NCBI GenBank assembly: GCA_965228855.1
Contig: CBDDIJ010000002.1
Coordinates: forward strand, 1,216,001-1,280,000
Reading direction: 5' to 3'
DNA from: Candidatus Obscuribacterales bacterium
Lineage (GTDB): Bacteria > Cyanobacteriota > Vampirovibrionia > Obscuribacterales > Obscuribacteraceae
DNA length: 64,000 bases
The notes under the pieces were generated by a model. That model had not been told where the DNA came from. It was given only the letters and a program-made list of their open reading frames with translations, and made no database searches. The translations under genes and the position numbers were made by a program. Positions 18,935 through 44,730 of this stretch are shown here, piece by piece (the first letter of the stretch is position 1; each line of letters opens with the position of its first letter).

Positions 18935-20514
18935 GTTCTATGCGTAACCCTCGTTTTACTCGCTTCGGATTGAAGAACCGACTTCTGATCGCGTCACTGT
19001 TTTTCTTTACACAAGGCGGATTCTCTGCGGCTCTTGCCGATGAACTGGCCTGGCAAACTTATAACGACGCCGGAGAATCTTTTGTAAAACAGCAAAAGTT
19101 CTCGGAAGCAGAGGAGATACTCGCATTGGCTGTCAGTGCGGCTCGCGATATGAATTCGAACGAGAGATTGCGCACCAGTTTAACTCTCCTTGTGCAGGTT
19201 TTTGAAAAACTAAATCAGGCTGAGAAGGCTGAAGCTGTGCGCAAGGAATTGCAAGCTCTCGGTGGTCCTGTGCCGGTTGCAGTTGCCCCATCTTCGTCCG
19301 AGAGCACCGGCTCACCTGTTGCAGTTTACCCCCCATCTTCAGAAATTTCTACCGAACCCGTTTCGGAAACTCCCGAGTCTGTGTCTGATGCCTCGTTGCC
19401 TGCGTCCGCGACTGAAACGTCTACAAAGTCGAAATCACCTGACAGCAGCATGCAGGAGGTAAAAACTGAAGACGGGGATGTCGATAAGTTGATTCAACAA
19501 CTGTCGAGTGAACGTGAGGGCTTGCGACAGTCAGATGGTGCTGGCGCCTCGAATTCAACGTCAGGCTCACGATCTGACCGGATAGCTTCGACACTACCGC
19601 CGGTGGCAGCATCGGGAACTACAATTTCTGCAACAGAAGTGAAACAGTTGACGGGACCTTTTGATTTTTCAATTTCAATCTGTTTTGCTCCGAATTCCAA
19701 TTATGCAGCGTCGAGTGGCGGCGACCAGATCGCGCGGTACTGGGACATTTCTTCCGGTAAGGAAATTTCGCAGTGCGCCGGTCACAAGGGAAACGTAAAT
19801 TCGGTTTCGTTTTCCAGGGATGGTCTGAGAATAGTTACCGGAGGCGATGACCAGACTGTTCGCATATTCGCTGCCGGTAGCGGTCAGCAAGAGAAGCTAA
19901 TGGAGGGGCACAAGAATACTGTTCTATGCGCTGCCTTCTCGCAGGACATGAGGCGCGTTGCCTCCGGTTCCTTTGATGGCGCGATTATTATTTGGGATGC
20001 GGAAACCGGCTCCAGGGTAGGAACTCTGGAAGGGCACACCCGACCGGTGAGAAGCGTTATGTTCTCACCATCCGGTGATAAGCTGGTCTCCGCGAGCGAC
20101 GACCATACATTAATCATTTGGGATGCGAACTCGTTGAAGCCTTTGAATACGCTGAAGGGGCACACTGACTATGTCCTCAGTCTAGATATCTCGCCGGATG
20201 GTAATCGAATAATCAGCGGTGGCCGCGATCTCAAGGTTCGCTTGTGGGATATGAACAACGGCAGCGAACTGCAGGTCATGGAAGGTCATAAAAATTGGGT
20301 TCAGCGAGTGCGTTTTATGAATAGTGGTAACCAGGCCATGACCGGAAGTCTGGACAAAACTGTGCGAATCTGGGATGTTTCATCCGGTGCATTGCAAACC
20401 ACCGTTGAAGGTTTTGAGTGGGGACTGTGGGCCGAGGACTTTGCTCCTGATTCCAGGCAAGTCTTGACGGGAAGCAATGATAAAACCATCCGAGTTTGGT
20501 CGCTGCCAAACTAG
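18931..20514 (+). CDS. Secreted TPR plus WD40 beta-propeller protein
   Basis: Signal peptide, short TPR-like helix pair, Ser/Pro linker, about 7 GH...WD repeats. Confidence 0.9.
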   Translation: MSSMRNPRFTRFGLKNRLLIASLFFFTQGGFSAALADELAWQTYNDAGESFVKQQKFSEAEEILALAVSAARDMNSNERLRTSLTLLVQVFEKLNQAEKAEAVRKELQALGGPVPVAVAPSSSESTGSPVAVYPPSSEISTEPVSETPESVSDASLPASATETSTKSKSPDSSMQEVKTEDGDVDKLIQQLSSEREGLRQSDGAGASNSTSGSRSDRIASTLPPVAASGTTISATEVKQLTGPFDFSISICFAPNSNYAASSGGDQIARYWDISSGKEISQCAGHKGNVNSVSFSRDGLRIVTGGDDQTVRIFAAGSGQQEKLMEGHKNTVLCAAFSQDMRRVASGSFDGAIIIWDAETGSRVGTLEGHTRPVRSVMFSPSGDKLVSASDDHTLIIWDANSLKPLNTLKGHTDYVLSLDISPDGNRIISGGRDLKVRLWDMNNGSELQVMEGHKNWVQRVRFMNSGNQAMTGSLDKTVRIWDVSSGALQTTVEGFEWGLWAEDFAPDSRQVLTGSNDKTIRVWSLPN

Positions 20515-20527
20515 CAAGCAGGGCATC

Positions 20528-20959
20528 ATGTTTCCAACAAATTTAGAGGCGATCAATATTCTTGTAGCAGGTAAAAGTCAGGCAAACGTTGACCTGGCGA
20601 AGGCTGCTTACCAGGGAATGGACTATCAAGTAATTCCTGCGCCGGGAACGTCACTTGCTTTGTTTCTCGCGCAGAAGAATTACCCCGATTTGATCATTTG
20701 CGATGGCACACTCACTGACGGAGATGGAATCACGTTTCTAAGTGAGCTCAAGGCTGATCCGGAGTTGGCGGAGATTCCGTTTGTATTTTTAGTGGATAAA
20801 CTGCATGGCGGTTTAGATGAAAACCTTGCCATCACATCCGGTGCCGTCAATGTTTTCTATCATCCTATAGAAGCTGCCTGGCTGAAGGAATGCACGGTGC
20901 CGATCATTACCCACCGTTCTCAAACCAAAGAAAAGCGAGCTGAACAAACGCCTGAGTAG
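20528..20959 (+). CDS. Atypical stand-alone receiver (CheY-like) domain
   Basis: YPDLIICD...DG..FL..LK.DP....IPFVFL; the acidic pair after beta1 and the conserved Lys (KP>HP) are missing. Confidence 0.8.
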   Translation: MFPTNLEAINILVAGKSQANVDLAKAAYQGMDYQVIPAPGTSLALFLAQKNYPDLIICDGTLTDGDGITFLSELKADPELAEIPFVFLVDKLHGGLDENLAITSGAVNVFYHPIEAAWLKECTVPIITHRSQTKEKRAEQTPE

Positions 20960-24887: not shown

Positions 24888-25508
24888 TCAGGCTTTCAGA
24901 ACGTTGTTGAACATCACTTCAATAAACATATCGAGCGGTCCGCAGCACTTGGTAGTCTTAGCGCGCATCATCGCCCCTTCCCAGCCGGAAAGAAACAGTT
25001 CCGCCATCGAATGAGGCGAAAATGACTTGTTGATTTCTCCGCGGTTTTGACCCTCTTCAATACAGCTTGCGAACAGATCTCTCCACTTGGACATTACTTG
25101 ACCGAGTGCCTGGCGCAAAGATTCGCTCTGATCCGCCATCTCCTGAGAGAGGTTTCCAACCAGGCACCCGCGTCTACACTCATTGGAATAGAACTTCTCT
25201 TTCGATTGCTCGCAGTGTTGGCGCAGTCGCTCGAGCGGTGACACTTCGGGATTGCGCAGTGTACGAAGTAGATTAGCCGTGTTCGCCTGATCAAAATGAG
25301 CGATGATCTGCAAGGCAAAATCTTCTTTGCTATCGAAATAGTGATAGAACGAGCCTTTTGGCACGCCGATCCGGGAAAGAACTTCCTGAATTCCGGTGTT
25401 CGTGTAACCTTTCTCGATCATCACATCCATGCCGGTTTCGAGGAGGGCGGTTTTGGTGTCCTGTTTCGTAGATGCTCTTGGTGTCATTGGTTGCTGAACT
25501 TGGCTCAT
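24888..25508 (-). CDS. TetR-family regulator, NemR-like
   Basis: HTH GVPKGSFYHYFDSKE; C-terminal GCLVGNLSQE and WEGAMMRAK; several Cys. Confidence 0.9.
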   Translation of the reverse strand: MSQVQQPMTPRASTKQDTKTALLETGMDVMIEKGYTNTGIQEVLSRIGVPKGSFYHYFDSKEDFALQIIAHFDQANTANLLRTLRNPEVSPLERLRQHCEQSKEKFYSNECRRGCLVGNLSQEMADQSESLRQALGQVMSKWRDLFASCIEEGQNRGEINKSFSPHSMAELFLSGWEGAMMRAKTTKCCGPLDMFIEVMFNNVLKA

Positions 25509-25545
25509 AGTTAAGACTCACTTTCTATATTAACATATTCCCAAC

Positions 25546-25560
25546 TAGACCGGTCGTATA
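25546..25560. promoter_or_regulatory. Putative TetR operator 1 (TAGACCGGTCGTATA)
   Basis: TAGAC-N5-GTATA, about 40 nt upstream of the TetR start; near-identical to copies 2 and 3. Confidence 0.75.
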
Positions 25561-25724
25561 TCGTCGCTGACCATTTGTTTGACTGTGGCGTGTGCAGCAC
25601 GTCTTCGCATTGTTTTAGCGAGGAACTCATCTGCGAAAAGCCAGAGGACGATGCCGCTCAGTAGTATTTCCCAGAAATTTTCGAATAACATGGCAGTTTC
25701 TCCAGTAGTGGTGGTTTTGTTGAC

Positions 25725-25958
25725 TCAGGCGACTTGATCCTTGTAATTAGACCGGTCGACTAATTTAGAGACAAAAAATTTGGGACCAAATTTCATTTCC
25801 AGGCTGTGCTTCTTTGCGTAGGCGGTTTCGGACGCGATTTGCCTGCTGCGCAGCTGGCGCTTCCAGATTTGTCCAAGAATAGCAGGGCATTCAGTTTTGC
25901 CCGAATCGTCGCCGTCGCATTCGATGATCTGTAGAGGGAGTTGTTCGTCATTAAACAT
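25725..25958 (-). CDS. Small hypothetical protein (77 aa)
   Basis: GAGG RBS before the ATG at 25958; lies directly downstream of a TTGACA-N18-TATTCT promoter. Confidence 0.55.
   Translation of the reverse strand: MFNDEQLPLQIIECDGDDSGKTECPAILGQIWKRQLRSRQIASETAYAKKHSLEMKFGPKFFVSKLVDRSNYKDQVA
25748..25762. promoter_or_regulatory. Putative TetR operator 2 (TAGACCGGTCGACTA)
   Basis: Inside the 3' end of the small ORF; flanks extend the palindrome as AATTAG...CTAATT. Confidence 0.6.
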
Positions 25959-25994
25959 TGGAGTTACCTCTTGAGTGGTGGCGTTGACATCACT

Positions 25995-26024
25995 AGAATA
26001 GACCGGTCGTCTACTAATTGTCAA
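25995..26024 (-). promoter_or_regulatory. Sigma70-type promoter overlapped by TetR operator 3 (TAGACCGGTCGTCTA, 25999-26013)
   Basis: Minus strand TTGACA-N18-TATTCT with a TAGAC-N5-GTCTA palindrome in the spacer and -10. Confidence 0.75.
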
Positions 26025-26240
26025 CCCACCCCGTTAATGTTTTCGATGATCGCTGGAAACCGCTCTCAATAACCAACGGAAAGTAAGGCAGTCTTAGCGA
26101 AATCGGGTGATGGTTTAACTAGTCCTTTCAAATGCGGGAAACATATTTCGCGTAACTTTTGTCTTCTGGCTACGTATGTGGAGGCGGCAGGTGTGGTTGA
26201 ATTGTCTGCTGCTCAGCAGGAGCGTTTTAAGGAGGTCACG

Positions 26241-26915
26241 ATGTTAGGTTCAGTTCGTAACGCATTTATAGGTACGGTAGCTTTCGGCGTCATGGTCGGT
26301 TCGCCGACTGTAGTTCAAGCGGCTGATTACACGCTTGACCCTTATCATTCAAAAGCTGAATTCTCAGTTCGCCACATGATGATTTCCAACGTGAGCGGTG
26401 AATTCGCCAAAGTCACGGGAACCGCTCAGTACGACGGAAAGGATGTGAAGTCTATCAAAGTCGATGCGACTATCGACGCGAACTCGATAGACACCGGTAA
26501 TGAAGACCGCGATAAGCACTTGCGCAACAAGGATTTTTTCGATACCGAAAAGTATCCGACCATCAAGTTCGTTTCGAAGTCTGCTAAGCCAGCGGGCAAA
26601 GGTCAATTTAAACTGACAGGCGATCTCACCATGCATGGTGTCACGAAGCCGGTTACGCTTGATGTGGAAGGACCGACTCCTGAGATAAACGATAAGCATG
26701 GCAACATGAAGCTTGGCGCGGAAGCCAAGACTGTTATCAACCGCAAGGATTTTGGAATCAGCTATGGTGGCTTGATGGATAATGGCGGCGCTGCTGTTTC
26801 AGACGAAGTCAAGATCACGCTGAACATCGAACTCTCCCGTCCGGCGGAAAAGAAAGCAGAGGGCAGCGATAAGAAAACGGAAGGCGCAGATAAGAAAGCT
26901 CAAGCTACTAAGTAG
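26241..26915 (+). CDS. yceI: YceI-family (polyisoprenoid-binding) periplasmic protein
   Basis: AAGGAGG RBS, signal peptide, Y.LDP.HS...F.VRH, RDKHLR..DFFD..KYP.I.F, GDLTMHGVTK. Confidence 0.93.
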   Translation: MLGSVRNAFIGTVAFGVMVGSPTVVQAADYTLDPYHSKAEFSVRHMMISNVSGEFAKVTGTAQYDGKDVKSIKVDATIDANSIDTGNEDRDKHLRNKDFFDTEKYPTIKFVSKSAKPAGKGQFKLTGDLTMHGVTKPVTLDVEGPTPEINDKHGNMKLGAEAKTVINRKDFGISYGGLMDNGGAAVSDEVKITLNIELSRPAEKKAEGSDKKTEGADKKAQATK

Positions 26916-26941: not shown

Positions 26942-26973
26942 AAGAAAGCGCGCTCGCATGGGCGCGCTTTCTT
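26942..26973. terminator. Bidirectional Rho-independent terminator
   Basis: AAGAAAGCGCGC...GCGCGCTTTCTT between convergent genes. Confidence 0.85.
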
Positions 26974-26990: not shown

Positions 26991-29195
26991 TTACGCGGGT
27001 AACGTGATTGCAAAACCGTCTCTGCCGTCTCTTGATTCAATCCGGAGAGTCCCACGATGACCTTCAACTGTTGCTCTTGCCAGTGCAAGACTCAACCCAC
27101 TGACCGTCCATGTGTCGTGCTGAGCAAGGTCGACGATTGCGTATCTCTTCAAGCATGTCTCTCTTGTCTGCTCGGGGATGATGCATCCGGGTGTGGTAAT
27201 GAAAAGGGAAACACGTCCGGGAGTGCGTTCCACATTGACCAAAACATCACTCGAATGATCGCTGAAGCGGAGTATTGCCAGCGCGAAGCTGACTATGGCA
27301 AGAACCAGTCTCTCGACATCGGCTCGAAATGGCATATGCGCACCCGGTGTATCGCAAGTGATGGTGCGGTTTTTATCGGGGCACATCTCGTTCAAACTAT
27401 CATTCGCTAGTGAGACCAGTTTCAACGCGGTCGTTTCTTGCGTTTCGAATGCGAATGCGCCCGACTCAATTTTTTCCAGGTCAAGGAAGTCGTTGATAAG
27501 GCAAACGAGCTTGCCTACTTTGTTTTCAGCTTGGACAAGCGTTTCGAATTCAACCTGCTCCTCGGCAGTTTTAGACTTTTCTTTCCGGTCCTCCATCTGC
27601 GCTGCCATCATGCCGAGAGTGCCATGAAGTGATGTTAGTGGAGAACGCAAATCGTGGCTGATCATGGAGATGAAGTCACGTTTTACGTTTTCAATCTCGC
27701 GCCTCGTCGTGATGTCTTGGAGAACGGCAAGAAAATATTCTTTGTCATGATTGGAGTATCGGTTTGCCATAAAAGACACCGCCAGCGGTGACTTGTCTTT
27801 TCGATATGACTGCAGCTCAAGTGGATGTGTTGCCGCCGCTTTGACGATGGCAGCGTCATCTGCGCCTCCTGTGGAGCTGCCGGTAAACAGGATGCTAAAC
27901 TCTCGACCGAGCAATTCATTGGCATGATACTGAAACATTTTTGTTGTAGTCGGATTTGCGGAGGTGATCTGAAATGCGTTGTTTAGCGATAGCACTGAAA
28001 GCGGCAAGCTATCAATTATTTTTCTGAATCTCTCTTCGCTTTCGCGCATCAACCGCCGAACCCGATTTCTTTCAGTAATGTCGTGCGCGATCAAGACTGC
28101 CGAGCTGTGATCTTCTCCCGGCTGGGCTGACCATAACAAGTCCAGATGCTCGCCATCTTTTTTGCGAATTGTGTTTTCAAAGGAAACCGATTGCCCCTGA
28201 TAGAAAAGCAGGTCGATTGCTTCCAGCGTTCGCTCAGTACTTTCCGTTTGAGTGAGTGAGCTAAGACGTCTTCCAATCAGGTCATCAGGACTGTATCCCC
28301 AGAGTCCACTGCTTGTCTGATTCACCTCTATAAAGACACCTTTGTCGTTCAAAGAACAGATGAACTCGGCTGCGTTTTCCAGAATCGTTCGTTCCTTACT
28401 TTTATAGTCGTCCAGAATGTGTCCGAGATCGCGAATGGCGTTGTCGAGCTGGGCAATTTCGTCATCGCCGGTGATTGGCGCAGCAAGCGGTTTTCCCATT
28501 GCAAGATTGACGGTATTGTCGGCGACGATTTTGAGACGCTTAGTCACTTGCACGAATACGTATCGGAAAAGCAAGAGTGCAATTCCTAGATTGATCGATA
28601 CGCCAATCGCCAGGGTGAACACAATCATTCCAACTGATTGGGTCTTGAGTTCATCACTGGCGGCCTGTTCAGTCCGTGAGAATTTGACTAGAAGTTTTTC
28701 AAGTCGTTCTGTAGTTGAATTCGACGCTTCTTGAAGTTTATACAGCAGGAAATAATGTTCACGAGACTCGGTGAGTTTGTTCCTCAGCTTTTGCATGAGG
28801 TCAACTCCCTCTTGATAGTTGTCGAGGAGATCTTCAAAGTCTTTTTTAACTTCGGGGTAGTCTCGAAAGTCACGTTTCAACTGCGTGAATTCCCTCGGAT
28901 AGCCGGCCGCGATATCCGTAAAACCCTGTGTGTATTTCTGCGGACTTCGTTGATGCGAGTGGGTCGTCACATTTTCCAGAACTTCAAGTGTCATGCTCTG
29001 GGTAAGATTCGACAATCGACTGAGTCTTCCGACGATGTTTTTAGCGCGCTTGACCTTTTCCATCTGCGAGAATGTGTCGTTGATCATCAAGCCGAGATAG
29101 CCTGCGAAAGCCGTTTGCAGCAGTGCGATTGTGCCGCAGAGAATCAGCATTCTTCTGCTGAGATTCGAAGTGGGTTTTCGCTCCGCGATGCTCAT
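26991..29195 (-). CDS. Sensor kinase-like protein (TM-sensor-TM-HAMP-2xPAS) with intact H-box and degenerate ATP-binding domain
   Basis: ISHDLRSPL present; N-box reads LAIVSFALAILRFS, G1 ITTPGCIIP, G2 VSGLSL. Confidence 0.88.
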   Translation of the reverse strand: MSIAERKPTSNLSRRMLILCGTIALLQTAFAGYLGLMINDTFSQMEKVKRAKNIVGRLSRLSNLTQSMTLEVLENVTTHSHQRSPQKYTQGFTDIAAGYPREFTQLKRDFRDYPEVKKDFEDLLDNYQEGVDLMQKLRNKLTESREHYFLLYKLQEASNSTTERLEKLLVKFSRTEQAASDELKTQSVGMIVFTLAIGVSINLGIALLLFRYVFVQVTKRLKIVADNTVNLAMGKPLAAPITGDDEIAQLDNAIRDLGHILDDYKSKERTILENAAEFICSLNDKGVFIEVNQTSSGLWGYSPDDLIGRRLSSLTQTESTERTLEAIDLLFYQGQSVSFENTIRKKDGEHLDLLWSAQPGEDHSSAVLIAHDITERNRVRRLMRESEERFRKIIDSLPLSVLSLNNAFQITSANPTTTKMFQYHANELLGREFSILFTGSSTGGADDAAIVKAAATHPLELQSYRKDKSPLAVSFMANRYSNHDKEYFLAVLQDITTRREIENVKRDFISMISHDLRSPLTSLHGTLGMMAAQMEDRKEKSKTAEEQVEFETLVQAENKVGKLVCLINDFLDLEKIESGAFAFETQETTALKLVSLANDSLNEMCPDKNRTITCDTPGAHMPFRADVERLVLAIVSFALAILRFSDHSSDVLVNVERTPGRVSLFITTPGCIIPEQTRETCLKRYAIVDLAQHDTWTVSGLSLALARATVEGHRGTLRIESRDGRDGFAITLPA

Positions 29196-31378
29196 TTGGG
29201 ATTCTCATTCGACGGTTTATGCAGGGGAACTGTAAACCAGAAGCGGCTGCCGGAGCCCTCTTCGCTCTCCACTCCGATTGAGCCTCCATGCGCTTCAACA
29301 ATCGATTTGCAAATTGATAAACCTAAGCCGGTGCCTTTGCCACGCCGCCCATCGGCGGCTGACGTCTGAATGTATTGTTCAAAGATCGAGGCGCGCATAC
29401 TCTCCGGAATGCCTCTTCCTTTATCAATGATGCTGAATTCGACATGCTCCGCATACTCTTTGACCTTGAGCGAAACAGTTGAGTATCGGGGAGAAAATTT
29501 GATTGCGTTGCCGGTCAAGTTTACAATCACCTGCACGAGCCGTTCCTGGTCACCAAATATGGTGCTTGTCGATTCTTCGTGCTCCAGGGAGATTCCCTGT
29601 TGTTCGGCGTGGTCACTGATAGCTTCGACGGCGCCTCTCATCACGTCGTGAACTAGCACCGGTTTTAACGAACCTACCAGTCGACCTGCACCCAGCTTCT
29701 GGATGCTTAGTAGTTCATCGATCAGTCTCAACAAGCGTTCGATATTAGTGCAAACCCGAGCGAGTCTATCCAGCTTTTTCGATTCGAGGTTGTTTCTCTG
29801 CAGGAGAGCAGAGACTCTCATCCGAGTGTCGTTGAGCGGTTCGCGCAAGTTGCGACCGAGGATGTTGACGAAATCCGCTTTCATCGTTTCCAGCTTCACT
29901 CGTTCGCTTACATCGTCCAGAACAAGTAGGCGATCGCTGCTCTCCTGTTCTTCCAGGTTCGCGGAGGTTATTTCAACAGGTAGATTGTGACCGTCAGGTA
30001 GTTTCAACGAGCAGCGAGTTGTCAGTTTGGTCGGCTTTGATTCAAGAGCTTGTAGAAGATCTTCGCCAACACCGTCTTCGGCTTCCAGCACCGATAGCAC
30101 CGGTCTGAGGGTCAAGTCCTGACGATTTCGCCCAGTCATCCTTTCAGCTGTGGCATTGACCGATTGAATGAAACCATCTCGATTTATCGCGATCAATCCA
30201 ACCGGAATGTTTTCGGTAGCGTTGCGAACCTGCTCTTCCTGTGCGGCTAGCAGAGCCTCCATATTTTTCAGCTCAGTCATGTTGTGAACGAAGCAGAACA
30301 GCGACTCGGCCGTTGTCGACCAATAGACGGACCAGGTTGTATCTATGTGTTCCTCAGTGCCGGTTAAAACGAACGCTTCGAAATTTGATCGCTTACCGGA
30401 AGACATCAGTTGTTTAACTTCTGCAGATACTCTTTCTGCGTCTTCAGAGCGCAAGATTGAGCTGAAGTGTTTTCCGATCAGATAATCAGGTTCGTAATGC
30501 CATTGCGATCTGACAGAGGGGCTCAGCGATGTGAACATTCCATCCGAGTCGAGTTGGCAGATCACTTCCGAAGCATTTTCAACCAAAGCTGCTTCGTTAC
30601 GCCGTGCTGATTGAATTGCAGTTGTCATTTCGTGGAAAAGAGAGTCGATCATACCGATTTCATCGGTGTATGGAATGCGCTCATTCAGAGGTTCTTCTCT
30701 GGAAAATCGGTCGACATTGTCTGAGAGCGTCGCTACTCTCCCGGTGATTCTTTTGACTAAAACCATCGCGACGAAAACAGCACCAAAGAGATTTACGAGG
30801 GCAGCTGTGATGAGAACTACCTGTGCGTCGCTGAGTGCTTTCACTGTATCGGAGGGTTTTGATTGTTCGGTATTGCGGTATCGCTTGATCAATTCTTGAG
30901 ATAGTCGCGTGACGTTTGACGACAAACGGAACATAGTTTTATTGAACGTCTCAAACCCTTCCGGCGATTGACGGAATGTGGACTGCTGAGAATCGTAGTA
31001 ATTACAAGTTGCCGAAGCCGCGCGTTCTAACTCGTCAAGTTTGCGCTGTGATTCGGGATCGTTTTGCACCAGATCTTTAAGGCGAGTGATTTCGCGGTTT
31101 AGCTGACCCAGAAATCCGTGATAATCGGTTGAACTTTCGACGAATTGAAGTAATTCCGGTGGCGACGCGGAGCGAATCATAGCGATGCCTATCTTCTGCG
31201 AGATGTTGGCGAGATTATTGAGACCGACGGCTACTTCGCGGTCGTGTTGCTCCTGATCGAGTAGGTCTTTGGTTTTAAAAAGCAATCCTGCAAGCGTTCC
31301 AATGAACAAAAACTCGACGGCGAGTAACAGGCAAATGCCTATTAAACCTTGCTTCGTAATCGTGATTCTTCTGAGCAT
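29192..31378 (-). CDS. Sensor kinase-like protein (TM-sensor-TM-HAMP-2xPAS) lacking the phospho-His, with intact ATP-binding domain
   Basis: H-box position reads LGRNLREPL; NLTGNAIKFS, DKGRGI and GTGLGL are intact. Confidence 0.88.
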   Translation of the reverse strand: MLRRITITKQGLIGICLLLAVEFLFIGTLAGLLFKTKDLLDQEQHDREVAVGLNNLANISQKIGIAMIRSASPPELLQFVESSTDYHGFLGQLNREITRLKDLVQNDPESQRKLDELERAASATCNYYDSQQSTFRQSPEGFETFNKTMFRLSSNVTRLSQELIKRYRNTEQSKPSDTVKALSDAQVVLITAALVNLFGAVFVAMVLVKRITGRVATLSDNVDRFSREEPLNERIPYTDEIGMIDSLFHEMTTAIQSARRNEAALVENASEVICQLDSDGMFTSLSPSVRSQWHYEPDYLIGKHFSSILRSEDAERVSAEVKQLMSSGKRSNFEAFVLTGTEEHIDTTWSVYWSTTAESLFCFVHNMTELKNMEALLAAQEEQVRNATENIPVGLIAINRDGFIQSVNATAERMTGRNRQDLTLRPVLSVLEAEDGVGEDLLQALESKPTKLTTRCSLKLPDGHNLPVEITSANLEEQESSDRLLVLDDVSERVKLETMKADFVNILGRNLREPLNDTRMRVSALLQRNNLESKKLDRLARVCTNIERLLRLIDELLSIQKLGAGRLVGSLKPVLVHDVMRGAVEAISDHAEQQGISLEHEESTSTIFGDQERLVQVIVNLTGNAIKFSPRYSTVSLKVKEYAEHVEFSIIDKGRGIPESMRASIFEQYIQTSAADGRRGKGTGLGLSICKSIVEAHGGSIGVESEEGSGSRFWFTVPLHKPSNENPK

Positions 31379-31577: not shown

Positions 31578-34500
31578 ATGGTGAAGAGCATGGGCATGAC
31601 AACAGGTTTAGACGTTCCGACTCCGATGGGCGGAGAAGATGGAGATAAGCAAAATCCCTGGGTGAATGAGGTTTTCTCTGCGCCGAAACCGGAACCGAAG
31701 CAAGCTGAACAGGCATCTACCCAAGCTGCAGGGGAAACTGCTGACGGCAAGAAAAACTTGTCGGGTCAACCCGAGGCACAGGAGCCTGTAGACGTTTCGA
31801 GAGCCGGTGCCGACGCGCCTGTTTCAAAGAATGAGAACGCGACAGCCGTCGAGGAACGGGCGGATAAAAGTGCGCAGTATGTCTCGCCGGATATGGGTCC
31901 TAAAGTTGATGGTCTGATTTCCGTCGAGCAGAATACTGTCAGAAAAGATGTTCTCGAAAAACTAAAAGGAGAAAAATCGAACGCAGCGAGAATCGAGCTT
32001 ATTGAAAGTCTCTTGAACGGCAAGCTCGATAATCAAACACGTCAAGAAATTCTTGCTCCTGAAGCCAATTCTGAGAGACGCAAAATTCTGGAAGACTTGA
32101 TGTCCGGAGAAAAACAGATCGAATTACGCTATCGCAACATGCGTGAGACGGTGATGAAAACGTTGCCCGACTACAAAGAATTTTTCCTGAGTGGAGACCG
32201 CGATCAAGAGCGCCAGTCTGTTTATCTTGCTTTGATAAAAGAAGATGGTGCAAGCAGTTCCAGAAAGTTGAAAGAGACGCTTGGTCTTGAAACCGACCCG
32301 AAGAGACAAGAGAAACTCAATTCATTGATTAATGATAACGGTGAGCTGGATCGTGTCTCAATAATCAAAGAGTTGATGAATAGTGAAACGGATGCGCGTA
32401 AGAAGCAGCTTTTGAGCGAGATCTTGAAGCATGAAACTAACATCAGTGCTTTTGGCAAGATGATTGACGAGCAGCCTTCTGAATCGTCGATTAAAACGGT
32501 CGCCGATATTTTTAGCGATAAAGAGCAAGCGGCGCGTTTGACTGAAATTGTGAAGACCACGAATGAAAGCCGCTCTCGATTGCTCGATCAGCTTGGTAAT
32601 CAGGCGGAGAAACCTGAGTTCAAAGCTGAAGTAGAGAAGCTCAAAACGGAGGAGCGCCCTGAAGAGCGCGTTAAAGTTCTCAACCAGCTTCTTTCTGATT
32701 GCACCGATGGTGCCACCCAAGGTCGGCTTCGTCAGCTGCTTTCACTGGAGAGAAAACTTGGAGTGATGTCAGACCTTCCTGCGGAGGAAACGCGACGAAA
32801 GGAATTGTATGCTGCGCTCGATAAGGTAAGCACTGGTGATTACGACTCCGTAATGAAGGCATATCCGCTTTGTGCCGAATGGCTCAAGAGTGCGGTGCCC
32901 GATGCTTTTGTAGAGGCGGGCTATCAAATGGGGATGGCGATTAAGCCTGGATGTCCGCTCAAGCTGCCGATCGAGCATGGTAGACCGATTCCGCCTCGTC
33001 TCATGGAGATGTATGCAAAAGAAGGGCGCATAAAGCTTGATATGGAGATGAGCGCTGAGAAGTTGCTCAATCCGTCGGAGAAGTTGGAGAATGTCGCAAA
33101 ATTGAAAAATGCTGTTGACTGGCTCTATCCGACTAAAGCCGAGATTCGAGAAGAGCAGCTTAAGTACGAAGCAAAGACTCTTGTTGATACCTTGAAGTTG
33201 AGTTTCGGACCTGAAGGTGTCGCGAAGTATGGTCCGGACGGAATACCAAAAGGTTGGATGCCGCCTGAAAAGGTGGAGGATATTCCAGCCTGGCGCGACC
33301 GCGTACTCAATGTCGTCAATCTCGGAAATCGTCTGCGCAATTATGCGCAGGCAATGAAAACAATCAGCGGTATTCAGGACGCCGATCAAGGTCTCGAAGA
33401 ACTCAAGCAGCTAGGTGTACAGTTTGAGTTCGGAAAGAATAATCAGTTGATCAAATTTGTTGTACCGCAACTCGATGGATTAGATTTGCGTTTGGGCATG
33501 CCGGCGAACGGCGCTCAGGTGAAGGGACTAGAATCCTGGCTGTCCAAGCACACTAAGGAAGTAGACAAAGCGCTCGATCCCTACAGGGACGCCATGGAGC
33601 AGTTGCTCGCCGACAAAAATCCCGGAGCGTTCTTGCGTCATGGTGATTTCCCTTTCAATGAAGGATTGCATAAAGACATTGGTGTACCCTATGACCTGAT
33701 CAGTCAGCGTGTCACCAAAGTCGAGCAGAAAGGTGGAAACATCGTTATCGAGGGAACGATTTCGTATCAAACATCGAGCTGGTACAGTTACAACTACTGG
33801 CTGGGATGTGAGCCCGTTTCCCGCAATATGAGCGACGCCGATTTCAGACGATTAAATGGTATCGCTCCTGGTGTGGAGCCTAAAGAGGGCGAGAAGTACA
33901 AAATTACTGGTGCTGACGGCAAAGAGCACGCGGGTTGGACCTTCCGTGGTAAGAATCCGGATGGCACTCTGAAGTTCGATCACGAGGAAACATTCCGGAT
34001 CGAAAAGCCTGCGAGTGAGTATTTCCCGGCAATGTCGGCAATGGGCAACATTCAACTGATCAAAGGTGACGATGTAAATCGATGGCTGTACGGTGCGAAG
34101 ATAGACAGCGTAAATCCGGCTAACTGGGAGCTTCCTCAAGTGGGCTTCTGGCACCACGGTTTGAAATACGGCAAGCTGGTGATGGATGTGGGTCTCACCG
34201 TATATGGTGGCGCCGGTATCGCTGCCAGAGGCGCCAGCTGGGGAGCGCGGGCTATGTCGCTCGGGCGTGTAGCTGTTGGGACGGCCGGATTGACTCATCA
34301 CATTATCGACACGAAATTGCCTAAAGAATGGCGCGACGGAATTCACATGGCGAGCCATGCGTTCATTCTTGCAGATGTTGGTCTCGGGCTTGGTGTCGGA
34401 ACTTTTAAGAAGGCGTTTGGTATAGGTGCGGCGGCGAAAGAATCGGCCAATTTGTTGAACACGCTCGGACACGGGGCCCTGGCAGTAGATGGTATCGCTA

Positions 34501-37500
34501 TCTTCGGTCCTGTGGTTGCGGCTGATATCAAAAATGTGGTGGACAATCACATGGGGTGGACCACGCAGCAAGTTCTCGAGCGTGCCTTGAACGACAGAGG
34601 GACGCCGGATCGTTTAGTGGCAAAAGAGGCTGATGACAAACCAGCCGCGTTCGATTTAAAAGATAGAGCAATCCGCGATTCAATGGATGTGATGGTGGAC
34701 CGGCTCGGTAAGACCGTCTTGACTGAAACTACGGACGAAGCAACTAAAGCGCGCGTTGAAAAACTGATAACAGACGGCAAGGCTGTGATGGGATTGGATC
34801 GCAATGATCCGAAGCGTCAGAAGTTCGTCGCCGACCTATCCAAGCTGTTTACTCCATCGGATGCAGCTGTTCTGTGGAACCACATCTCTAGCCAACCCGG
34901 CAAGTTCGAAGCGCAATTCCGCAGAGATGCGCAGGCAAAAGTCGGAGTCGATCAATCCACACCCAGCTCGCAGGAGAAACTTATAGCATCGGCACTGGCT
35001 CTCGTTCTTCAGGCTAACGAGAAGGGCGAATTGCCGGAGGCGGTTTTGAAGCGCGAGGTCGTGATCCCTGCACACAAGGAATATCGCGACGGCAAGCTGG
35101 TTGATGTTGCGCAATCGACGAAGGAAGTTTCCGTTTCCCGCGATGAGATTTCCGGTCTGGCTCAGCGCCTGGCTGAGACTTCGGAGTTACCGTCGATCAA
35201 GATGGCGGCCTCCAAAATGTTGTGGCGCATGGGTAAACTGGACCACAACGGACTTGCCGGAGTGCTTCTGGAAGTCGCTCAAAAGTCGAACAATCGTGAA
35301 CTGGCTGGTATGGCGTTAATCGACAATCAGGACGTCTCGCTTGGTTTTCTCCTCAATGATATTACTCATAGAGAAGTGGTGGCGGCGAGTGGCGGTTATG
35401 TTTCGTTGCAAGAATACCGCGCTAGAAATTATGGTTTAACTTCGGACGATCTGAAGCGGGATCTCAAAGCTCTCATCAGTGATGGCGCCAGAAGTGCCGA
35501 TGTTCGTGCGATGGCGACGGAACTTTTGATGGCAAATGACCTCGATAAGGTTGAAGATCGAAAGCGTGCTTTAGCAGATTGCGACCAACGCTGGCAGCGT
35601 CAACATTCCAGGGACGGCGGATACGCAGCTGATTTCGTGAAGTCGTTGAAATACCAGGCGCAGCAAGAAGTGACCGACAAGCCGGTCGAGCGTAAAGTCA
35701 AAGTGATGGAAAAGGGCGTTGAGAAGGAAGTCACGCTCTCACTGTCTCCGGAAGAAATAAAGCTGGAGAAGTTCCGAGCTTTGTCCGCACTTAAGAACAT
35801 CGGAGTCATCAAAGTCGACGGCGAAGATTACAGAATGCCGGCTGAACAACTTAATGGACAGTTCTTGAAGTGTCTATCTGCAAATAACATTGACCTCACC
35901 CTTGGTGTCATCAAAAATATCGATTTAGCCAAACTCAGTCAAGCGGAGCGTAAGCAATTACTTGGAGTGCTTGGTTGGCCGACTACGGAGCAGAGTGTTC
36001 AGGCTAAAGTTGAAGTGCTGAAAGCTGTGCGTGATATCGTTGGTGGTGACGCTGAGGTTGCAAGAGAAACGAAGTCGCGCCTCCTCGATATGCTGAATCC
36101 GGCGAGCACGCGACGCGGTTCGGAAGACTATTCGTGGGTTGGAGCGTATCCGGATTTGCACGCAGGTGCATTGACAGCGCTGGCTTCTTTTGGCTGCCAG
36201 TACCATACGGAGGCCGTCAAAGCAACGAACTTGTCCAGAGCCGATTTCGAGGCGAAGCTGGCACCTGGCGAGTCGAAAGAATTGATTCGCGGAAAGTATT
36301 ACCAGCTCAAAGAAGGTGATAGCACCGTCTGGTATCGTTATTCCGGAACTGCCCAGGATGGTTCGGAGCGCTTCATCAAACAAGGCGATCCGACTGTAGC
36401 AGTTCTGGTTCAACACCTCAAAGGCGGTGATCGAATCGGTTCTGCGCAGGTGAGATTGGCTGCCATTCAAGCTGCCGGTGATTTGCAAATTCCCGGTTTG
36501 CGGGAGTTGATGGTTGATGCAATCAAGCAGGAAACCGATCCGCGTGTTGCAAAACGCCTGCGCGAAGTGCGATTTCCGGAGGAACCTCCGCTGGATCCGA
36601 AATCTGATGCAAGCATCGACAAGTTGAACGAGTATATGACGCAGGTTCTGCAAAATAAGCAGTTCAGCGACCTCGATCATTACGGAAAGTGGATGAAGGC
36701 CACTTATCCGCTGCTGTTCGACCATAAATTTAAAGACGAGTTGAGTTCTGCAATCAAAGGTGTATACGGTGAAGGCTTCTTCAGTGGTGTTCCATTTATG
36801 TGGGACAAGACGTTCGGTTCTAAGTCTCCTGATCAATACTGGGATGAGGCGGTAAAAGGCGTCGACGACCGATATGAGGCGGATCTGAAGAAGCTAATCG
36901 ACGGCGCTAAGAGTTCGCCTGATGCAGCGACGCGGGAAAACTCGATTATGTCGCTACTCTTCATCATCACCACCCGTGGTGCCGGTACCGCGGCTACCGA
37001 CAGTCAAGGGATGCCGTTCCGTTGGAAGGACGTCACCATTGCTAGATCTGTCGTCGCATTCAGCGAGATGGCTGACAAGGGTGCTAAGGAAAGAGGTGGT
37101 GCGGCTAAGTGGGCGGTCGAAAAGCTGCTTACGCAACAACCTGACCTTCATCCCGATTACAAGCAAGTTCTGCTTACCGCCGCGATCAAGATGGCGAAAG
37201 CGGACGAGGGGCAGACCGGCGACCAGGCGATGACCAAAGAGCATCTTTCCAAAGTTCTTTATCTCGCGCTCAAGGCGACCGCCGGCTTTCCCAAGCCTGC
37301 TGATAGCGAACGATACAACAAGGAAGTCGAGTACCACAAAGACCTGATCTATTACATGACAGCGATGTGTCGTGACGCCGGTGCCACCGAATTGCTCGAA
37401 GCTGTCGCCAAGGAGCATCCGGCAAAGGAAGTTCGTGAGCAAGCGGAGTGGGGCGTTCGATTCATGCGTGATGGAATCAGCCGAAATCTGAATGACGCGT

Positions 37501-39305
37501 TCAAGAATCCCGACACTCTCTCGACCGCCAGTCAGCGTCGCGATGCGATTCTGTCTAACCTGACGAATCCGGAAAAATCGACTGAGGAGGTTGTGCGCGC
37601 GATTGCCAAGGCGGTTGCGGGTTACGACTGGAGAAAGCCGGAGAATGCCGGAGCTAACAACGAGGCGATGAGATCTGCTCTGAGAAAGGCGATGAGCGAT
37701 CCGCGCGTTCGCGTCAAGATGGTGGCAAGCACGTTTTTATTAGAAACCGGAGATGGATTCGATATTGCGCTGGCTGCAGAAACTTTGCAAACCATCTCAA
37801 CGACGCCTTACAAATACGGAAGCAGTGATCGCGAATTGAAGTACTACAAGATCGAAGCCGACGAAGTGATGAACAGATTTTTGAAGGGCATCGAGAAGGC
37901 CCCGAAGGAGATTCGAGACAATCGTGTTGCGCTGGTTGAGCGTGGCAAGGAGCTCTCGCGCGACAAGCAAGATGGTGTGATGGCGTATTCGTTTATCCAT
38001 CCGGACAACAAATCGCTCGCGAGTGCGCAGCAAGAACTGGAAAGTGTGTTGGAGAGTCCCAACTCAAACGAAATCGATATAGTCAAAGCCCTCTTCTATG
38101 CAAATGGAAAACATCAGGATCGCGTACTTGCGCCAACCGAGCCTCTTCTGGGCTTATACAGAACGGCACTGGAACATCGCAGCGAAAAGGTGCGTGCAGC
38201 TGCTGCCGAATGCATTATCCGATCTGCAACGAGCGAAGCAGATTTGTTGAAGGCTACCGGAGTGCTGAAAGAGGTTGTCGAGAAAAGTGGCAATGTTCAG
38301 TTGAAAAAGGAAGCGAGCGCACGCTTAAGTAGAGTCGCAGACTTTAGTAATTTCGATGTGAGTGGTGTAACTGCCGCTGCTGATGCGACTCTTCCGTCGG
38401 CAGATCAGGCGAAAACCCTTGCTTCTGTTTCCACTTTGCTCAAAGATGGAAAAGAGGACCAGGTGCTGCAGGCCGCGAAAGAGGTACTTTCCATCCGCTC
38501 CAACGGAATGCTGAAGTCCGATGATCCGGCTCTAAATGTTTTGCGCGACGCGCTAAACAGCAAGTATGCAATTCTGCAACTTGCAGCTGCAGTGCGTCTT
38601 GTAGAACAAAGTCCGAACGCAGCAGATTTGAAACGAGTCGCAGATAGGCTTGTTGATCTACAGAAATCCAATCTTCCTCAGGTTTTTCGCAAGGACGCGG
38701 CGAATATATTGAAGAAACTGTCCGACTCAAATTTGGAAAACGCAAAGATGGTCAGTGAAGTTCAAGCCGCAGCCGATAAGAGTCTTGGAATGATAATCGA
38801 CGTGGTCAGGGACTTACCGGCGCAAACAAACGGCGACCTGAAAGTCAACGCGGAAAAACTTGCAACGCTTCTCGCCGCTGCTAAAGATGCTCCGAGTAAG
38901 CGCAGTTCAGACGATGCAATTAAATCGATATACAGTAATGCTCTGAACGCTGCTACATGGGGCGCAAATAGTGAAGTTACTGCTCAAATTCGTGATGCTG
39001 CTTTGTCCCATCCGGACGAGCGTGTGCGTCTGACGGCGGCATGGATGCTCGCTCAAGTCGCTCCTGGACAGGATGATGCATCGACCGGTTATATGGTGCT
39101 TGCAAAGCTGGCTGAGCAGTCCAAAGATAATGCGGTGAAAATTGAGTCGATGGACATTCTGAATGCTGTGATCGGCGGACAACAGCAAATTATCGACAGC
39201 ACTGACGCGGCGGTGACAATTCAGCAAAAGACGCGTGCGCGCTGGGCTCTTGGTGAGATTGCGCGTCATCGTGATGCCATAATCAAAGCAGCGTCGATGA
39301 AGTGA
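31578..39305 (+). CDS. Giant (2575 aa) helical protein with a central Gly-rich hydrophobic region and C-terminal HEAT-like repeats
   Basis: Uninterrupted 7.7-kb ORF; LR.AL.....RV...AA..L repeats in the C-terminal part; no signal peptide. Confidence 0.85.
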   Translation: MVKSMGMTTGLDVPTPMGGEDGDKQNPWVNEVFSAPKPEPKQAEQASTQAAGETADGKKNLSGQPEAQEPVDVSRAGADAPVSKNENATAVEERADKSAQYVSPDMGPKVDGLISVEQNTVRKDVLEKLKGEKSNAARIELIESLLNGKLDNQTRQEILAPEANSERRKILEDLMSGEKQIELRYRNMRETVMKTLPDYKEFFLSGDRDQERQSVYLALIKEDGASSSRKLKETLGLETDPKRQEKLNSLINDNGELDRVSIIKELMNSETDARKKQLLSEILKHETNISAFGKMIDEQPSESSIKTVADIFSDKEQAARLTEIVKTTNESRSRLLDQLGNQAEKPEFKAEVEKLKTEERPEERVKVLNQLLSDCTDGATQGRLRQLLSLERKLGVMSDLPAEETRRKELYAALDKVSTGDYDSVMKAYPLCAEWLKSAVPDAFVEAGYQMGMAIKPGCPLKLPIEHGRPIPPRLMEMYAKEGRIKLDMEMSAEKLLNPSEKLENVAKLKNAVDWLYPTKAEIREEQLKYEAKTLVDTLKLSFGPEGVAKYGPDGIPKGWMPPEKVEDIPAWRDRVLNVVNLGNRLRNYAQAMKTISGIQDADQGLEELKQLGVQFEFGKNNQLIKFVVPQLDGLDLRLGMPANGAQVKGLESWLSKHTKEVDKALDPYRDAMEQLLADKNPGAFLRHGDFPFNEGLHKDIGVPYDLISQRVTKVEQKGGNIVIEGTISYQTSSWYSYNYWLGCEPVSRNMSDADFRRLNGIAPGVEPKEGEKYKITGADGKEHAGWTFRGKNPDGTLKFDHEETFRIEKPASEYFPAMSAMGNIQLIKGDDVNRWLYGAKIDSVNPANWELPQVGFWHHGLKYGKLVMDVGLTVYGGAGIAARGASWGARAMSLGRVAVGTAGLTHHIIDTKLPKEWRDGIHMASHAFILADVGLGLGVGTFKKAFGIGAAAKESANLLNTLGHGALAVDGIAIFGPVVAADIKNVVDNHMGWTTQQVLERALNDRGTPDRLVAKEADDKPAAFDLKDRAIRDSMDVMVDRLGKTVLTETTDEATKARVEKLITDGKAVMGLDRNDPKRQKFVADLSKLFTPSDAAVLWNHISSQPGKFEAQFRRDAQAKVGVDQSTPSSQEKLIASALALVLQANEKGELPEAVLKREVVIPAHKEYRDGKLVDVAQSTKEVSVSRDEISGLAQRLAETSELPSIKMAASKMLWRMGKLDHNGLAGVLLEVAQKSNNRELAGMALIDNQDVSLGFLLNDITHREVVAASGGYVSLQEYRARNYGLTSDDLKRDLKALISDGARSADVRAMATELLMANDLDKVEDRKRALADCDQRWQRQHSRDGGYAADFVKSLKYQAQQEVTDKPVERKVKVMEKGVEKEVTLSLSPEEIKLEKFRALSALKNIGVIKVDGEDYRMPAEQLNGQFLKCLSANNIDLTLGVIKNIDLAKLSQAERKQLLGVLGWPTTEQSVQAKVEVLKAVRDIVGGDAEVARETKSRLLDMLNPASTRRGSEDYSWVGAYPDLHAGALTALASFGCQYHTEAVKATNLSRADFEAKLAPGESKELIRGKYYQLKEGDSTVWYRYSGTAQDGSERFIKQGDPTVAVLVQHLKGGDRIGSAQVRLAAIQAAGDLQIPGLRELMVDAIKQETDPRVAKRLREVRFPEEPPLDPKSDASIDKLNEYMTQVLQNKQFSDLDHYGKWMKATYPLLFDHKFKDELSSAIKGVYGEGFFSGVPFMWDKTFGSKSPDQYWDEAVKGVDDRYEADLKKLIDGAKSSPDAATRENSIMSLLFIITTRGAGTAATDSQGMPFRWKDVTIARSVVAFSEMADKGAKERGGAAKWAVEKLLTQQPDLHPDYKQVLLTAAIKMAKADEGQTGDQAMTKEHLSKVLYLALKATAGFPKPADSERYNKEVEYHKDLIYYMTAMCRDAGATELLEAVAKEHPAKEVREQAEWGVRFMRDGISRNLNDAFKNPDTLSTASQRRDAILSNLTNPEKSTEEVVRAIAKAVAGYDWRKPENAGANNEAMRSALRKAMSDPRVRVKMVASTFLLETGDGFDIALAAETLQTISTTPYKYGSSDRELKYYKIEADEVMNRFLKGIEKAPKEIRDNRVALVERGKELSRDKQDGVMAYSFIHPDNKSLASAQQELESVLESPNSNEIDIVKALFYANGKHQDRVLAPTEPLLGLYRTALEHRSEKVRAAAAECIIRSATSEADLLKATGVLKEVVEKSGNVQLKKEASARLSRVADFSNFDVSGVTAAADATLPSADQAKTLASVSTLLKDGKEDQVLQAAKEVLSIRSNGMLKSDDPALNVLRDALNSKYAILQLAAAVRLVEQSPNAADLKRVADRLVDLQKSNLPQVFRKDAANILKKLSDSNLENAKMVSEVQAAADKSLGMIIDVVRDLPAQTNGDLKVNAEKLATLLAAAKDAPSKRSSDDAIKSIYSNALNAATWGANSEVTAQIRDAALSHPDERVRLTAAWMLAQVAPGQDDASTGYMVLAKLAEQSKDNAVKIESMDILNAVIGGQQQIIDSTDAAVTIQQKTRARWALGEIARHRDAIIKAASMK

Positions 39306-39346
39306 ATACGCTCGGGTCATGAAGGTCTTTTTGCGATGTTAGGTTA

Positions 39347-39365
39347 GTTCCCCTAATAGGGGAAC
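39347..39365. other. Perfect inverted repeat GTTCCCCTA-A-TAGGGGAAC
   Basis: Seen directly, about 40 nt after the giant gene stop, between convergent genes. Confidence 0.6.
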
Positions 39366-39406
39366 AGAAATACTAGGTCTTCGGGATCGGAACAGCGGTC
39401 AAAATC

Positions 39407-39424
39407 CCGGAAATGCCCATCGGA
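39407..39424 (+). repeat. 18-bp direct repeat copy 2
   Basis: Identical to 31468-31485. Confidence 0.8.
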
Positions 39425-39495
39425 ACGTGATTCTGGCGAATTCCCCTATTGGCGGACATTCTTGAACGAGTTCGTTTGAGGTATAGATACGTCGG

Positions 39496-43059: not shown

Positions 43060-43515
43060 TGGATATCTCCTGAAGTGTGCGCGCAAAGGCAAAGCCGTAT
43101 TGACCGGTTTTGGGTGGGTTGGTCGTCATCTTTGGACGTAATGGATCAGGACTGCAACAAATTCAGCTTGCGTTGCTCCAGGGTATATACAGCCAGCGTC
43201 ATAACTTGGACAATTTTTGCCGCTTATTTTGCTCGAAACTTTGGATATTGCACCGTCTTGCATGCTTGGTGGATATGCGGTTCTCGCCATAGTGGTGTTG
43301 TATCTGGTGACTGTTCGATATAAGCTGCAAGGTGCAAGATCCGCGAACCAGATGTGGTATCACTGTCGCTTGTCAAATTTCTAGTGTATGATGTTGGTCG
43401 AATTCGGCTCTAACTGTGACTTTTATTAGATCGCGTTCACTCGGAAACTTTACCGATATTGCGAACGACTAGAGCTTGGTGAAACTACCGGTGATATCAT
43501 CAGCGAGGTTGGATT

Positions 43516-44520: not shown

Positions 44521-44730
44521 CATTCGAGGGGTCTGGTAAAAGGCTTCCGTCTGGTTCTCAAATCAATAAACGTTGGCAAGGATCGAACGCTCCCTGTTTT
44601 GACAAATGATTTCAAGTGTTGGGCATAAATGATCCAGCACTGATAAACTTGGTTTGTTGCAAACGCCTGGTGAAAGACTACTTTCCCTCCGTAAATCTGG
44701 AAACCGCCGCAAGCCTGCGTCGAGGAAACA

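Follow-up and report, generated by a model that had tools for sequence, protein, structure and literature searches.

Whether a histidine kinase acts in cis or in trans is usually tested by mixing engineered His-minus and ATP-minus mutants. Naturally split kinases are known as well: CheA3 and CheA4 of Rhodobacter sphaeroides divide the kinase function over two paralogues, as a class II chemotaxis kinase with an Hpt acceptor and no shared dimerization and histidine phosphotransfer (DHp) bundle, and Rv0600c and Rv0601c of Mycobacterium tuberculosis place the ATP-binding and His halves on two adjacent genes, as short fragments. In the available part of its report, the latter system is described as two sensor kinases with one regulator, TcrA (PMC3544749), and engineered His-minus and G2-minus variants of GacS complement each other in trans according to the available text of PMC8498467. 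The closest precedent for the present work is FasB/FasC of group A Streptococcus, where, as far as the accessible passages go, two coupled full-length kinases provide the His from one and the catalytic and ATP-binding (CA) domain from the other (PMC12675982). The same passages and those of PMC9491836 call heterodimeric histidine kinases rare, and PMC12471899 and PMC9208753 contained no passage on kinase heterodimers. Here we analyze a stretch of 64,000 nt (the window) from a Candidatus Obscuribacterales bacterium (genome G000, contig C2, positions 1216001-1280000), which carries two adjacent genes, A and B, that would likewise encode two such coupled full-length kinases. No published description of this kinase family was found in a search that was thin on subscription journals and had supplements outside it.

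A and B very probably work only together, as a single kinase, and we propose an obligate heterodimer with one trans-acting site that would phosphorylate an OmpR-type regulator encoded elsewhere. An earlier note on this DNA had inferred such a heterodimer from the two genes alone. That inference is now supported: reciprocal losses are tied together in all eight pairs of the genome, in 28 operon pairs and in 72 fused proteins, rather than occurring independently and uncorrelated, they have several origins, and both genes are under purifying selection.

Results

Genes A and B each carry half of a kinase active site

The products of A and B share 23% identity over 736 alignment columns. The H-box region of A reads DFVNILGRNLREPL, with Arg509 in place of the phospho-His, Asn at +1 and Glu at +4, and its CA motifs are complete (N620, N624, D652-K-G-R-G and G682-T-G-L-G). 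The H-box region of B reads DFISMISHDLRSPL and keeps His514 (His514-Asp-Leu-Arg-Ser-Pro). Its N-box has both Asn replaced (S636 and A640), its G1 box has T668 instead of Asp and I672 instead of the second Gly, and its G2 box has lost two of three Gly (V698 and S702) and retains G700. Pfam HATPase_c scores 103 bits in A vs 26.9 bits in B, and HisKA scores 22.7 bits in A (below the cut-off) vs 44.3 bits in B. With HisKA, HATPase_c and an N-terminal sensor, both proteins have the layout of class I sensor histidine kinases (HisKA of A and HATPase_c of B being weak), and neither combines a phospho-His with intact N, G1, F and G2 boxes in one chain, as a canonical homodimer does. No NCBIfam equivalog cut-off was reached among those tested (PnpS, WalK, PhoR and AtoS), the best scores being 206 bits vs 400 for A (PnpS) and 134 vs 334 for B (PhoR).

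These features agree with the earlier note, which had described two genes overlapping by 4 bp, the upstream one with His replaced by Arg and canonical N, G1 and G2 boxes, the downstream one with a canonical H-box and N, G1 and G2 boxes lost; both open reading frames (ORFs) lie at the coordinates given there, on the minus strand, with an ATGA overlap that suggests translational coupling. Of the layout claimed for both, transmembrane (TM) helix-sensor-TM-HAMP-PAS-PAS-DHp-CA, all parts were recovered except HAMP, which has no Pfam call in A or B and is presumably present, judging from position and Atlas neighbours. In each protein a TM scan places a periplasmic domain of about 155 amino acids (aa) between two TM helices, and, as leads only, these domains may resemble four-helix CHASE3/4HB/Tar-type sensors. 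Pair A/B is one of four paralogous operons in G000 (the other three at C2:1694448-1698793, C3:2329369-2333750 and C5:940969-945416), the A genes forming one clade (99) and the B genes another (95); the kinase tree, made in quick mode and with long branches, was used only for these two starred four-member clades. A promoter and terminator scan around the pair gave matches at chance level only.

Half-dead kinases adjoin each other throughout the genome

By a profile made from its own kinases, G000 has 112 kinase-like ORFs, which sort by motif into 80 intact kinases, nine His-less ones with an intact CA domain (A type), eight with the His and a dead CA domain (B type), two doubly dead, six borderline and seven without an aligned DHp. 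All eight B-type genes adjoin an A-type gene on the same strand, and eight of the nine A-type genes adjoin a B-type gene. Only 8 of the 80 intact kinases adjoin another kinase (Fisher p 1e-11; the genes are not independent), among them the members of two tandem pairs that belong to the same membrane family and likewise overlap by 4 bases. Six of the pairs are in A-B order and two in B-A order, in size classes of about 480, 600-670 and 730 aa. The ninth His-less gene (C5:110976) encodes a soluble protein with a GAF-like N-terminus (by eye) and is unrelated to the pairs. Automatic annotation miscounts such genomes: 16 kinase genes of G000 are half-enzymes.

The pairs are conserved and co-vary in relatives

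Orthologous A/B pairs occur in G007, G005, G002 and G006, with the same A and B motifs in G007, G005 and G006. Contigs from two public runs, which are possibly the source of the same DNA, span the stretch with 0 differences; together with the shared motifs of the three relatives, this indicates that the split is no assembly error. A look for expression data turned up no RNA data set, and the single run labelled as RNA is probably DNA. Among 250 loci with 267 distinct kinase genes, sampled by likeness to the queries and not randomly, a partner of the other type lies beside 28 of the 33 A genes and beside 29 of the 34 B genes, and pairs or fusions were found under nine genus codes. For the five remaining A genes, the B gene is cut by the locus edge in one case (it is whole in L177), a fusion is cut by a contig end in another, and the others face the split G006 gene, lie at a contig end or belong to L248; the five remaining B genes are those of G002, G006 and L248, one at a contig end and one in L249. 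The 4-base overlap of A/B recurs at 19 of the 28 A/B operon junctions, and the pairwise distances of the A partners correlate with those of the B partners (Mantel rho 0.86, 34 pairs, 0 of 2000 shuffles). In a sister family and other families of the class, all 31 kinase units in the 30 best loci of five genomes are intact (135 further matches lie outside this count).

Both A and B are under purifying selection. By a counting method on one genome pair, G000 vs G007 (dS is near or past saturation in other comparisons), the dN/dS values of A and B are 0.08 and 0.09, with 0.03 and 0.07 in their sensors, 0.00 in the His-less DHp and 0.06 in the dead CA domain; dN/dS is below 0.3 in every domain of both proteins, and it is 0.05 over whole genes for G005 vs G002. 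The check that the earlier note had proposed on orthologues, namely whether reciprocal losses are kept under purifying selection, came out in its favor: the losses go together in the eight pairs of G000, in the 28 operon pairs and in the 72 fusions described below, and A and B are both under purifying selection, with a His in G002 and an internal TAA in G006 as exceptions.

An OmpR-type regulator lies close to five related pairs, being adjacent in L034, L037 and L048, divergent in L179 and one gene off in L033, and no further kinase adjoins the regulator-A-B operons of L034 and L048. At L180:481-2118 (minus strand), a 545-aa protein with a receiver domain at its start and a Ser/Thr kinase-like end (by eye) is divergent from an A-B pair. 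At L239:5582-7897, an intact kinase has a paralogous second copy nearby whose motifs are drifting (VRHDISTPL, NAIKV and VGVGL), perhaps at an early stage of decay.

Fused proteins combine complementary modules

Both partners occur in one chain at two loci, L120 (1230 aa) and L070 (1022 aa, L070:3628-6696), and two intact modules do so in L173 and L184. In each of the 12 best matches of the L120 protein, the first module is His-less, and the second one carries the His and a degenerate CA domain. The L070 protein was searched against 1.84 billion representatives, which gave 150 proteins, 118 of them with two kinase modules. Seventy-two of these are cleanly complementary, 60 with the His-less, CA-intact module before the His-bearing, CA-dead one and 12 in reverse order. 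Another 26 are intact-intact (25 with TM helices between the modules and one without), two are complementary with one imperfect motif, eight have a His-less first and a short His-bearing second module, four are intact-intact with one imperfect motif, two have one DHp unaligned and four are exceptions. An intact module joined to a doubly dead one was found in 0 of the 118.

This tally bears on the mode of action. In a trans dimer each site joins the His from one chain to the CA domain from the other, so that losing one of the two sites leaves exactly an A and a B chain; in a cis dimer His and CA domain belong to the same chain, and losing one site would leave an intact and a doubly dead chain. 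Seventy-two complementary fusions against none of the latter kind therefore point to trans, and this pattern of losses suggests that A acts on B in trans.

Two TM helices were detected per module in 62 of the 72 clean complementary fusions, with a median of 175 residues between them, so both sensors appear to be kept. The fusions come in two types, one of roughly 1000 aa with HAMP only and one of about 1250 aa with one PAS; a fused form of the 730-residue clade, that of A/B, was not found among 7982 candidates of 1275-3640 aa, which is weak evidence. Taxon names are available for few of these proteins; in a look-up of 10, three members of one cluster had Melainabacteria/Obscuribacterales names. 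At L120:5221-10425, L075:514-4445 and L233, A-B or intact-intact fusions are immediately preceded or flanked by further intact kinases of the same family, with three in a row in L233.

The split arose repeatedly

The His-less modules are not one group: with the H-box columns removed, a single origin is rejected by the approximately unbiased test at p 0.013 (LG+G4, 37 rows chosen of 111). On a FastTree tree of 150 CA-intact modules, again with H-box columns dropped, parsimony counts 16 changes, at least seven of which are forced by branches at 95 or above. The complementary fusions branch from among intact-intact ones of like build, and both orders occur within one build. Proteins of about 1250 aa are mostly A-B, with P0174 and P0236 B-A; among those of about 1020 aa, L070 and P0123 are A-B and P0129, P0134, P0162 and P0172 are B-A. 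These trees are unrooted, and loss is the probable direction because rebuilding an active site would take many regains. At even odds for the same or the opposite module, seven losses all in the opposite module have a chance of less than 1 in 100 by our own arithmetic. The split has evolved repeatedly in these non-photosynthetic relatives of cyanobacteria, often inside one fused protein, and the existence of intact tandem and fused pairs indicates that two-sensor dimers came before the half-dead state.

Active-site residues are partitioned between A and B

In the 72 fused pairs, which also provide the helix-2 percentages given below as family statistics, the B modules keep the His (100%), D/E at +1 (100%), R/K at +3 (97%) and T/S at +4 (94%), and the A modules have both N-box Asn, the Lys, G1, the F-box and G2 at 100% and have lost the helix-1 face. 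The same division holds in 38 A units and 40 B units. A units keep the Mg/ATP residues and the lid at least as strictly as intact kinases, and they keep the hydrophobic DHp core and Pro+5 and have lost only the exposed face. Helix-1 positions +3, +4, +7, +8 and +11, the docking surface for regulators, are kept in B and lost in A.

The division can be compared with solved kinases. In the available text on the CpxA Michaelis complex, the acceptor side consists of H248, E249 and R251 and the CA side of N356, N360, R363, F403 and G420 (PMC3904827); in our alignment the acceptor-side counterparts are kept in B (100, 100 and 97% of 72) and the CA-side counterparts in A (100% of 72). From the same source, L292 and R296 of CpxA touch the active CA domain from the opposite monomer, and the corresponding R314 of HK853 binds a sulfate on His260 in the available part of PMC7005713. 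B modules keep these columns (L in 99%, K or R in 96%), in A modules they are relaxed (L in 54%, K in 14%), and one helix-2 Arg goes the opposite way (99% in A, 18% in B).

These patterns are consistent with the following model. The pair would go back to an intact kinase duplicated in tandem, with heterodimers already being formed, and one of two equivalent trans sites would then have been lost, making both homodimers mute as kinases and fixing an asymmetry that is otherwise transient in kinase dimers. The DHp hairpins of A and B would form one four-helix bundle, and two unlike periplasmic helical domains would sense the signal as a dimer. ATP would be bound by the CA domain of A, which would act in trans to phosphorylate His514 of B, the neighbouring Asp515 being a putative general base, and an OmpR-type regulator encoded elsewhere would dock on helix 1 of B and take the phosphate. 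The dead CA domain of B may be retained as a docked, structural one; in CpxA one CA domain is mobile and catalytic and the other is held on the DHp, and such a held role would fit the conservation of the dead domain.

Features of the pair and its surroundings

The features of the pair are listed in Table 1.

Table 1. Features of gene pair A/B, with positions in the window
Feature	Position	Strand	Remarks
Gene A (P0001, 728 aa)	29192..31378	-	TM-periplasmic sensor-TM-(HAMP)-PAS-PAS-DHp-CA; His-less, CA intact; putative ATP donor subunit
Gene B (P0002, 734 aa)	26991..29195	-	Layout as gene A; His514 kept, CA catalytic motifs lost; putative phospho-acceptor subunit
ATGA, stop of A overlapping start of B	29192..29195	-	Read from sequence
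Arg509 codon (CGC), phospho-His position of A	29852..29854	-	
His514 codon of B; then Asp515, Arg517, Ser518, Pro519	27654..27656	-	
Intact CA domain of A (residues 609-720): N620, N624, K627, D652, F666, G682-G686	29219..29554	-	HATPase_c E 1.6e-29
CA domain of B (residues 626-733), degenerate yet conserved	26997..27320	-	HATPase_c E 7.2e-6; dN/dS 0.06
Periplasmic sensor of A (about residues 31-186), helical, possibly CHASE3/4HB-like	30821..31288	-	TM scan; weak CHASE3 match E 0.004; Atlas leads; dN/dS 0.03
Periplasmic sensor of B (about residues 35-190), possibly 4HB_MCP/CHASE3/TarH-like	28626..29093	-	TM scan; Atlas leads 0.92-0.95; dN/dS 0.07
Two PAS domains of A	29903..30580	-	Pfam
Two PAS domains of B	27708..28391	-	Pfam
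GC-rich hairpin with A/T flanks, between convergent yceI and gene B	26942..26973	.	By eye; promoter/terminator scan without a call; possible two-way terminator

The pair is flanked by a YceI gene and a gene for a 2575-aa protein, and no response regulator lies beside it, as the earlier note had stated. A TetR-family gene and the divergent yceI gene (window 24888-26915) lie downstream of B and accompany the pair in four relatives. In L120, where an intact kinase stands before the fused A-B gene, another TetR gene with a similar N-terminus lies two genes ahead of that kinase. On the other side, the 2575-aa HEAT-like gene and a 1198-aa gene without a Pfam match (window 31578-43092) separate gene A from genes at 43516-47142. 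Counterparts of the latter genes, including a 230-aa GGDEF-like one, are directly upstream of A in G002, G005 and G006, so the two large genes look inserted in G000; in G007 the large gene likewise lies beside A.

Other signaling genes occur in the window. A single-domain receiver-like protein (20477-20959, plus strand) has a weak Response_reg match (27 bits, below the cut-off) and is encoded 6 kb from the pair, and Kdp potassium-transport genes with a KdpD/KdpE-like two-component pair, judged by eye, occupy 20-5148. An 811-aa membrane kinase-like protein (57485-59920, minus strand) has a long periplasmic domain, a coiled coil and a PAS domain. It is dead on both counts, with no His (MLQDAIRA) and no N, G1 or G2 motifs, has no adjoining kinase and is unrelated to the A/B pairs.

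Discussion

Several observations weigh against a trans-acting heterodimer. Many kinases act in cis, where an A/B heterodimer would be dead. The family is most like WalK/PhoR/PnpS by NCBIfam (below cut-offs), and the solved relatives nearest to an intact member are WalK, GacS, VicK and HK853. WalK acts in cis (PMC11371814), and these solved relatives comprise the cis-acting WalK and VicK and the trans-acting GacS. The spacing from the His to helix 2 is 49 in 182 of 193 intact units, near the 48 of WalK and above the 46 of GacS and the 43 of CpxA, a loop that matches the cis types in length; as a predictor of cis or trans action, loop length is ambiguous. Pair A/B has no regulator of its own, and five related pairs have an OmpR-type one nearby. 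Its own helix-2 signal is weak: A keeps L557 and K561, and B has K562 where A has R548. Among the fusions, P0201 keeps the His in its CA-intact module, P0158 and P0179 carry a His in each module, and of their two CA domains even the better one has a damaged G1, and P0177 is dead throughout, with both CA domains and both His gone. Among the operon pairs, one A orthologue of four, that of G002, has the His again (CAC for CGC), followed by Asn and not Asp/Glu, the B orthologue of G006 has an internal TAA, the B gene of L249 has no adjoining A gene, and A and B of L248 are one gene apart on opposite strands. In our weighing, the 72-to-0 pattern of the fusions outweighs the likeness to cis types.

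Other functions for the same two proteins have to be considered. It is unlikely that the heterodimer serves as a signal-controlled phosphatase or phosphate sink, in which the nucleotide-bound CA domain of A would only position a regulator on helix 1 of B. Position H+4 is tied to phosphatase activity and its T/S is kept in B (94%), pair A/B lacks its own regulator in a genome with 43 OmpR-like regulators and 80 intact kinases, and P0158 and P0179 perhaps have no working CA domain, all of which would suit such a role. However, B also keeps the acidic H+1 and the R+3 that serve autophosphorylation in CpxA (PMC3904827, available text). Neither the strictness of the Mg/ATP residues and lid in A, which equals or exceeds that of intact kinases, nor the regulator-A-B operons of L034 and L048, where no other adjacent kinase would feed the regulator, is expected of a phosphatase. 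It is quite unlikely that A and B stay homodimers, or form a tetramer, with the A dimer phosphorylating the B dimer from outside as in the split-kinase mechanisms of CheA3/CheA4 and Rv0600c/Rv0601c. The reciprocal losses and gene coupling would fit this arrangement equally, and a right-handed DHp loop would not be needed, which makes it compatible with the likeness to the cis-acting WalK. But the 72 fusions, with two full membrane modules and intact-intact ancestors, are most simply built-in dimers and lend indirect support to a physical A-B heterodimer, and A keeps the DHp core and Pro+5, loses the exposed face alone and relaxes opposite-monomer residues that an A homodimer might need.

We consider it highly unlikely that the two proteins have separate relay jobs, A as a DivL-like pseudokinase and B as a RedE/ChpT-like acceptor charged by a receiver domain. 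In DivL the His is replaced but the regulator-docking face of helix 1 is conserved, and that face, which a DivL-like sensor would need, is lost in A; this role was rejected for A, as positions +1, +3, +4, +7, +8 and +11 are variable in A units. DivL is nevertheless among the top solved matches of A, B has sequence features of RedE/ChpT-like phosphotransfer proteins, L249 has a solo B, and RedE is described in the available text as kinase-like, without autophosphorylation and receiving its phosphate from a receiver (PMC2755868). Separate jobs leave unexplained the absence of intact plus doubly dead fusions (0 of 118) and the occurrence of both orders over at least seven changes, no hybrid kinase or extra receiver is present at the locus of pair A/B, and B is constantly paired with A. 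Finally, the internal stop in the G006 B orthologue and the return of the His in the G002 A orthologue could be taken as signs that A and B are decaying duplicates without a joint function, which is extremely unlikely given the low dN/dS of every domain and of whole genes and the co-variation of partner distances.

With the trans-acting heterodimer preferred, the retention of two sensors would fit the AND gate suggested in the earlier note, a shared ligand site or a neutral ratchet equally well. Since two-sensor dimers came first, a neutral ratchet may account for the half-dead state, with no adaptation towards AND logic. A wider reading, somewhat less likely than not, is that Obscuribacterales have made a heterodimeric receptor platform out of the homodimeric sensor kinase. 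Two different sensors would be brought together by tandem or fused kinases, one trans site would have been lost at least seven times in either direction, and output would need both subunits and maybe both inputs, as a two-input gate or composite ligand site. The four paralogous A/B operons might even exchange partners within one cell.

Evolution has run the His-minus/ATP-minus mixing test many times here, and the intact, fused and split stages are all preserved. Natural single-site kinases give a handle on whether activity belongs to the asymmetric dimer state and on which of the two sensors drives that state. The A/B pairs would also be an example of duplicates turned into obligate heteromers, and a source of parts for two-input sensors.

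Among half-dead kinase-like proteins, DivL of Caulobacter resembles A; it reportedly acts alone with receiver proteins and has no reciprocal sister. CheA3/CheA4 and A/B have the division between paralogues in common, the Hpt acceptor being found only in the CheA system. As in Rv0600c/Rv0601c, ATP binding and the phospho-His of A/B are on two adjacent genes, but A and B are full-length paralogues with their own membrane sensors. RedE of Myxococcus xanthus, likewise a half-dead kinase-like protein, resembles B and, in the available text, acts alone with receivers and has no reciprocal sister (PMC2755868). RetS-GacS of Pseudomonas aeruginosa has a heterodimeric DHp-DHp interface between two different kinases; unlike what we propose for A/B, this natural heterodimer inhibits, and both proteins also homodimerize, according to the accessible part of PMC8498467. 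FasBC has six TM helices and a ComE-like regulator, and in FasB the TM part is dispensable and cis action on H284 is not excluded, as far as the available passages state (PMC12675982); A and B have two TM helices per protein and OmpR-type regulators at related pairs. Unlike in FasBC, the His is plainly replaced and the CA motifs are plainly lost in A/B, both sensors are under selection, the proteins are of HisKA type with PAS and presumed HAMP domains, and the arrangement has many origins, its intermediates being both fused and intact. The A/B pair would work like FasB/FasC but stands outside that family, having neither the six-TM sensor nor an adjacent ComE-like regulator.

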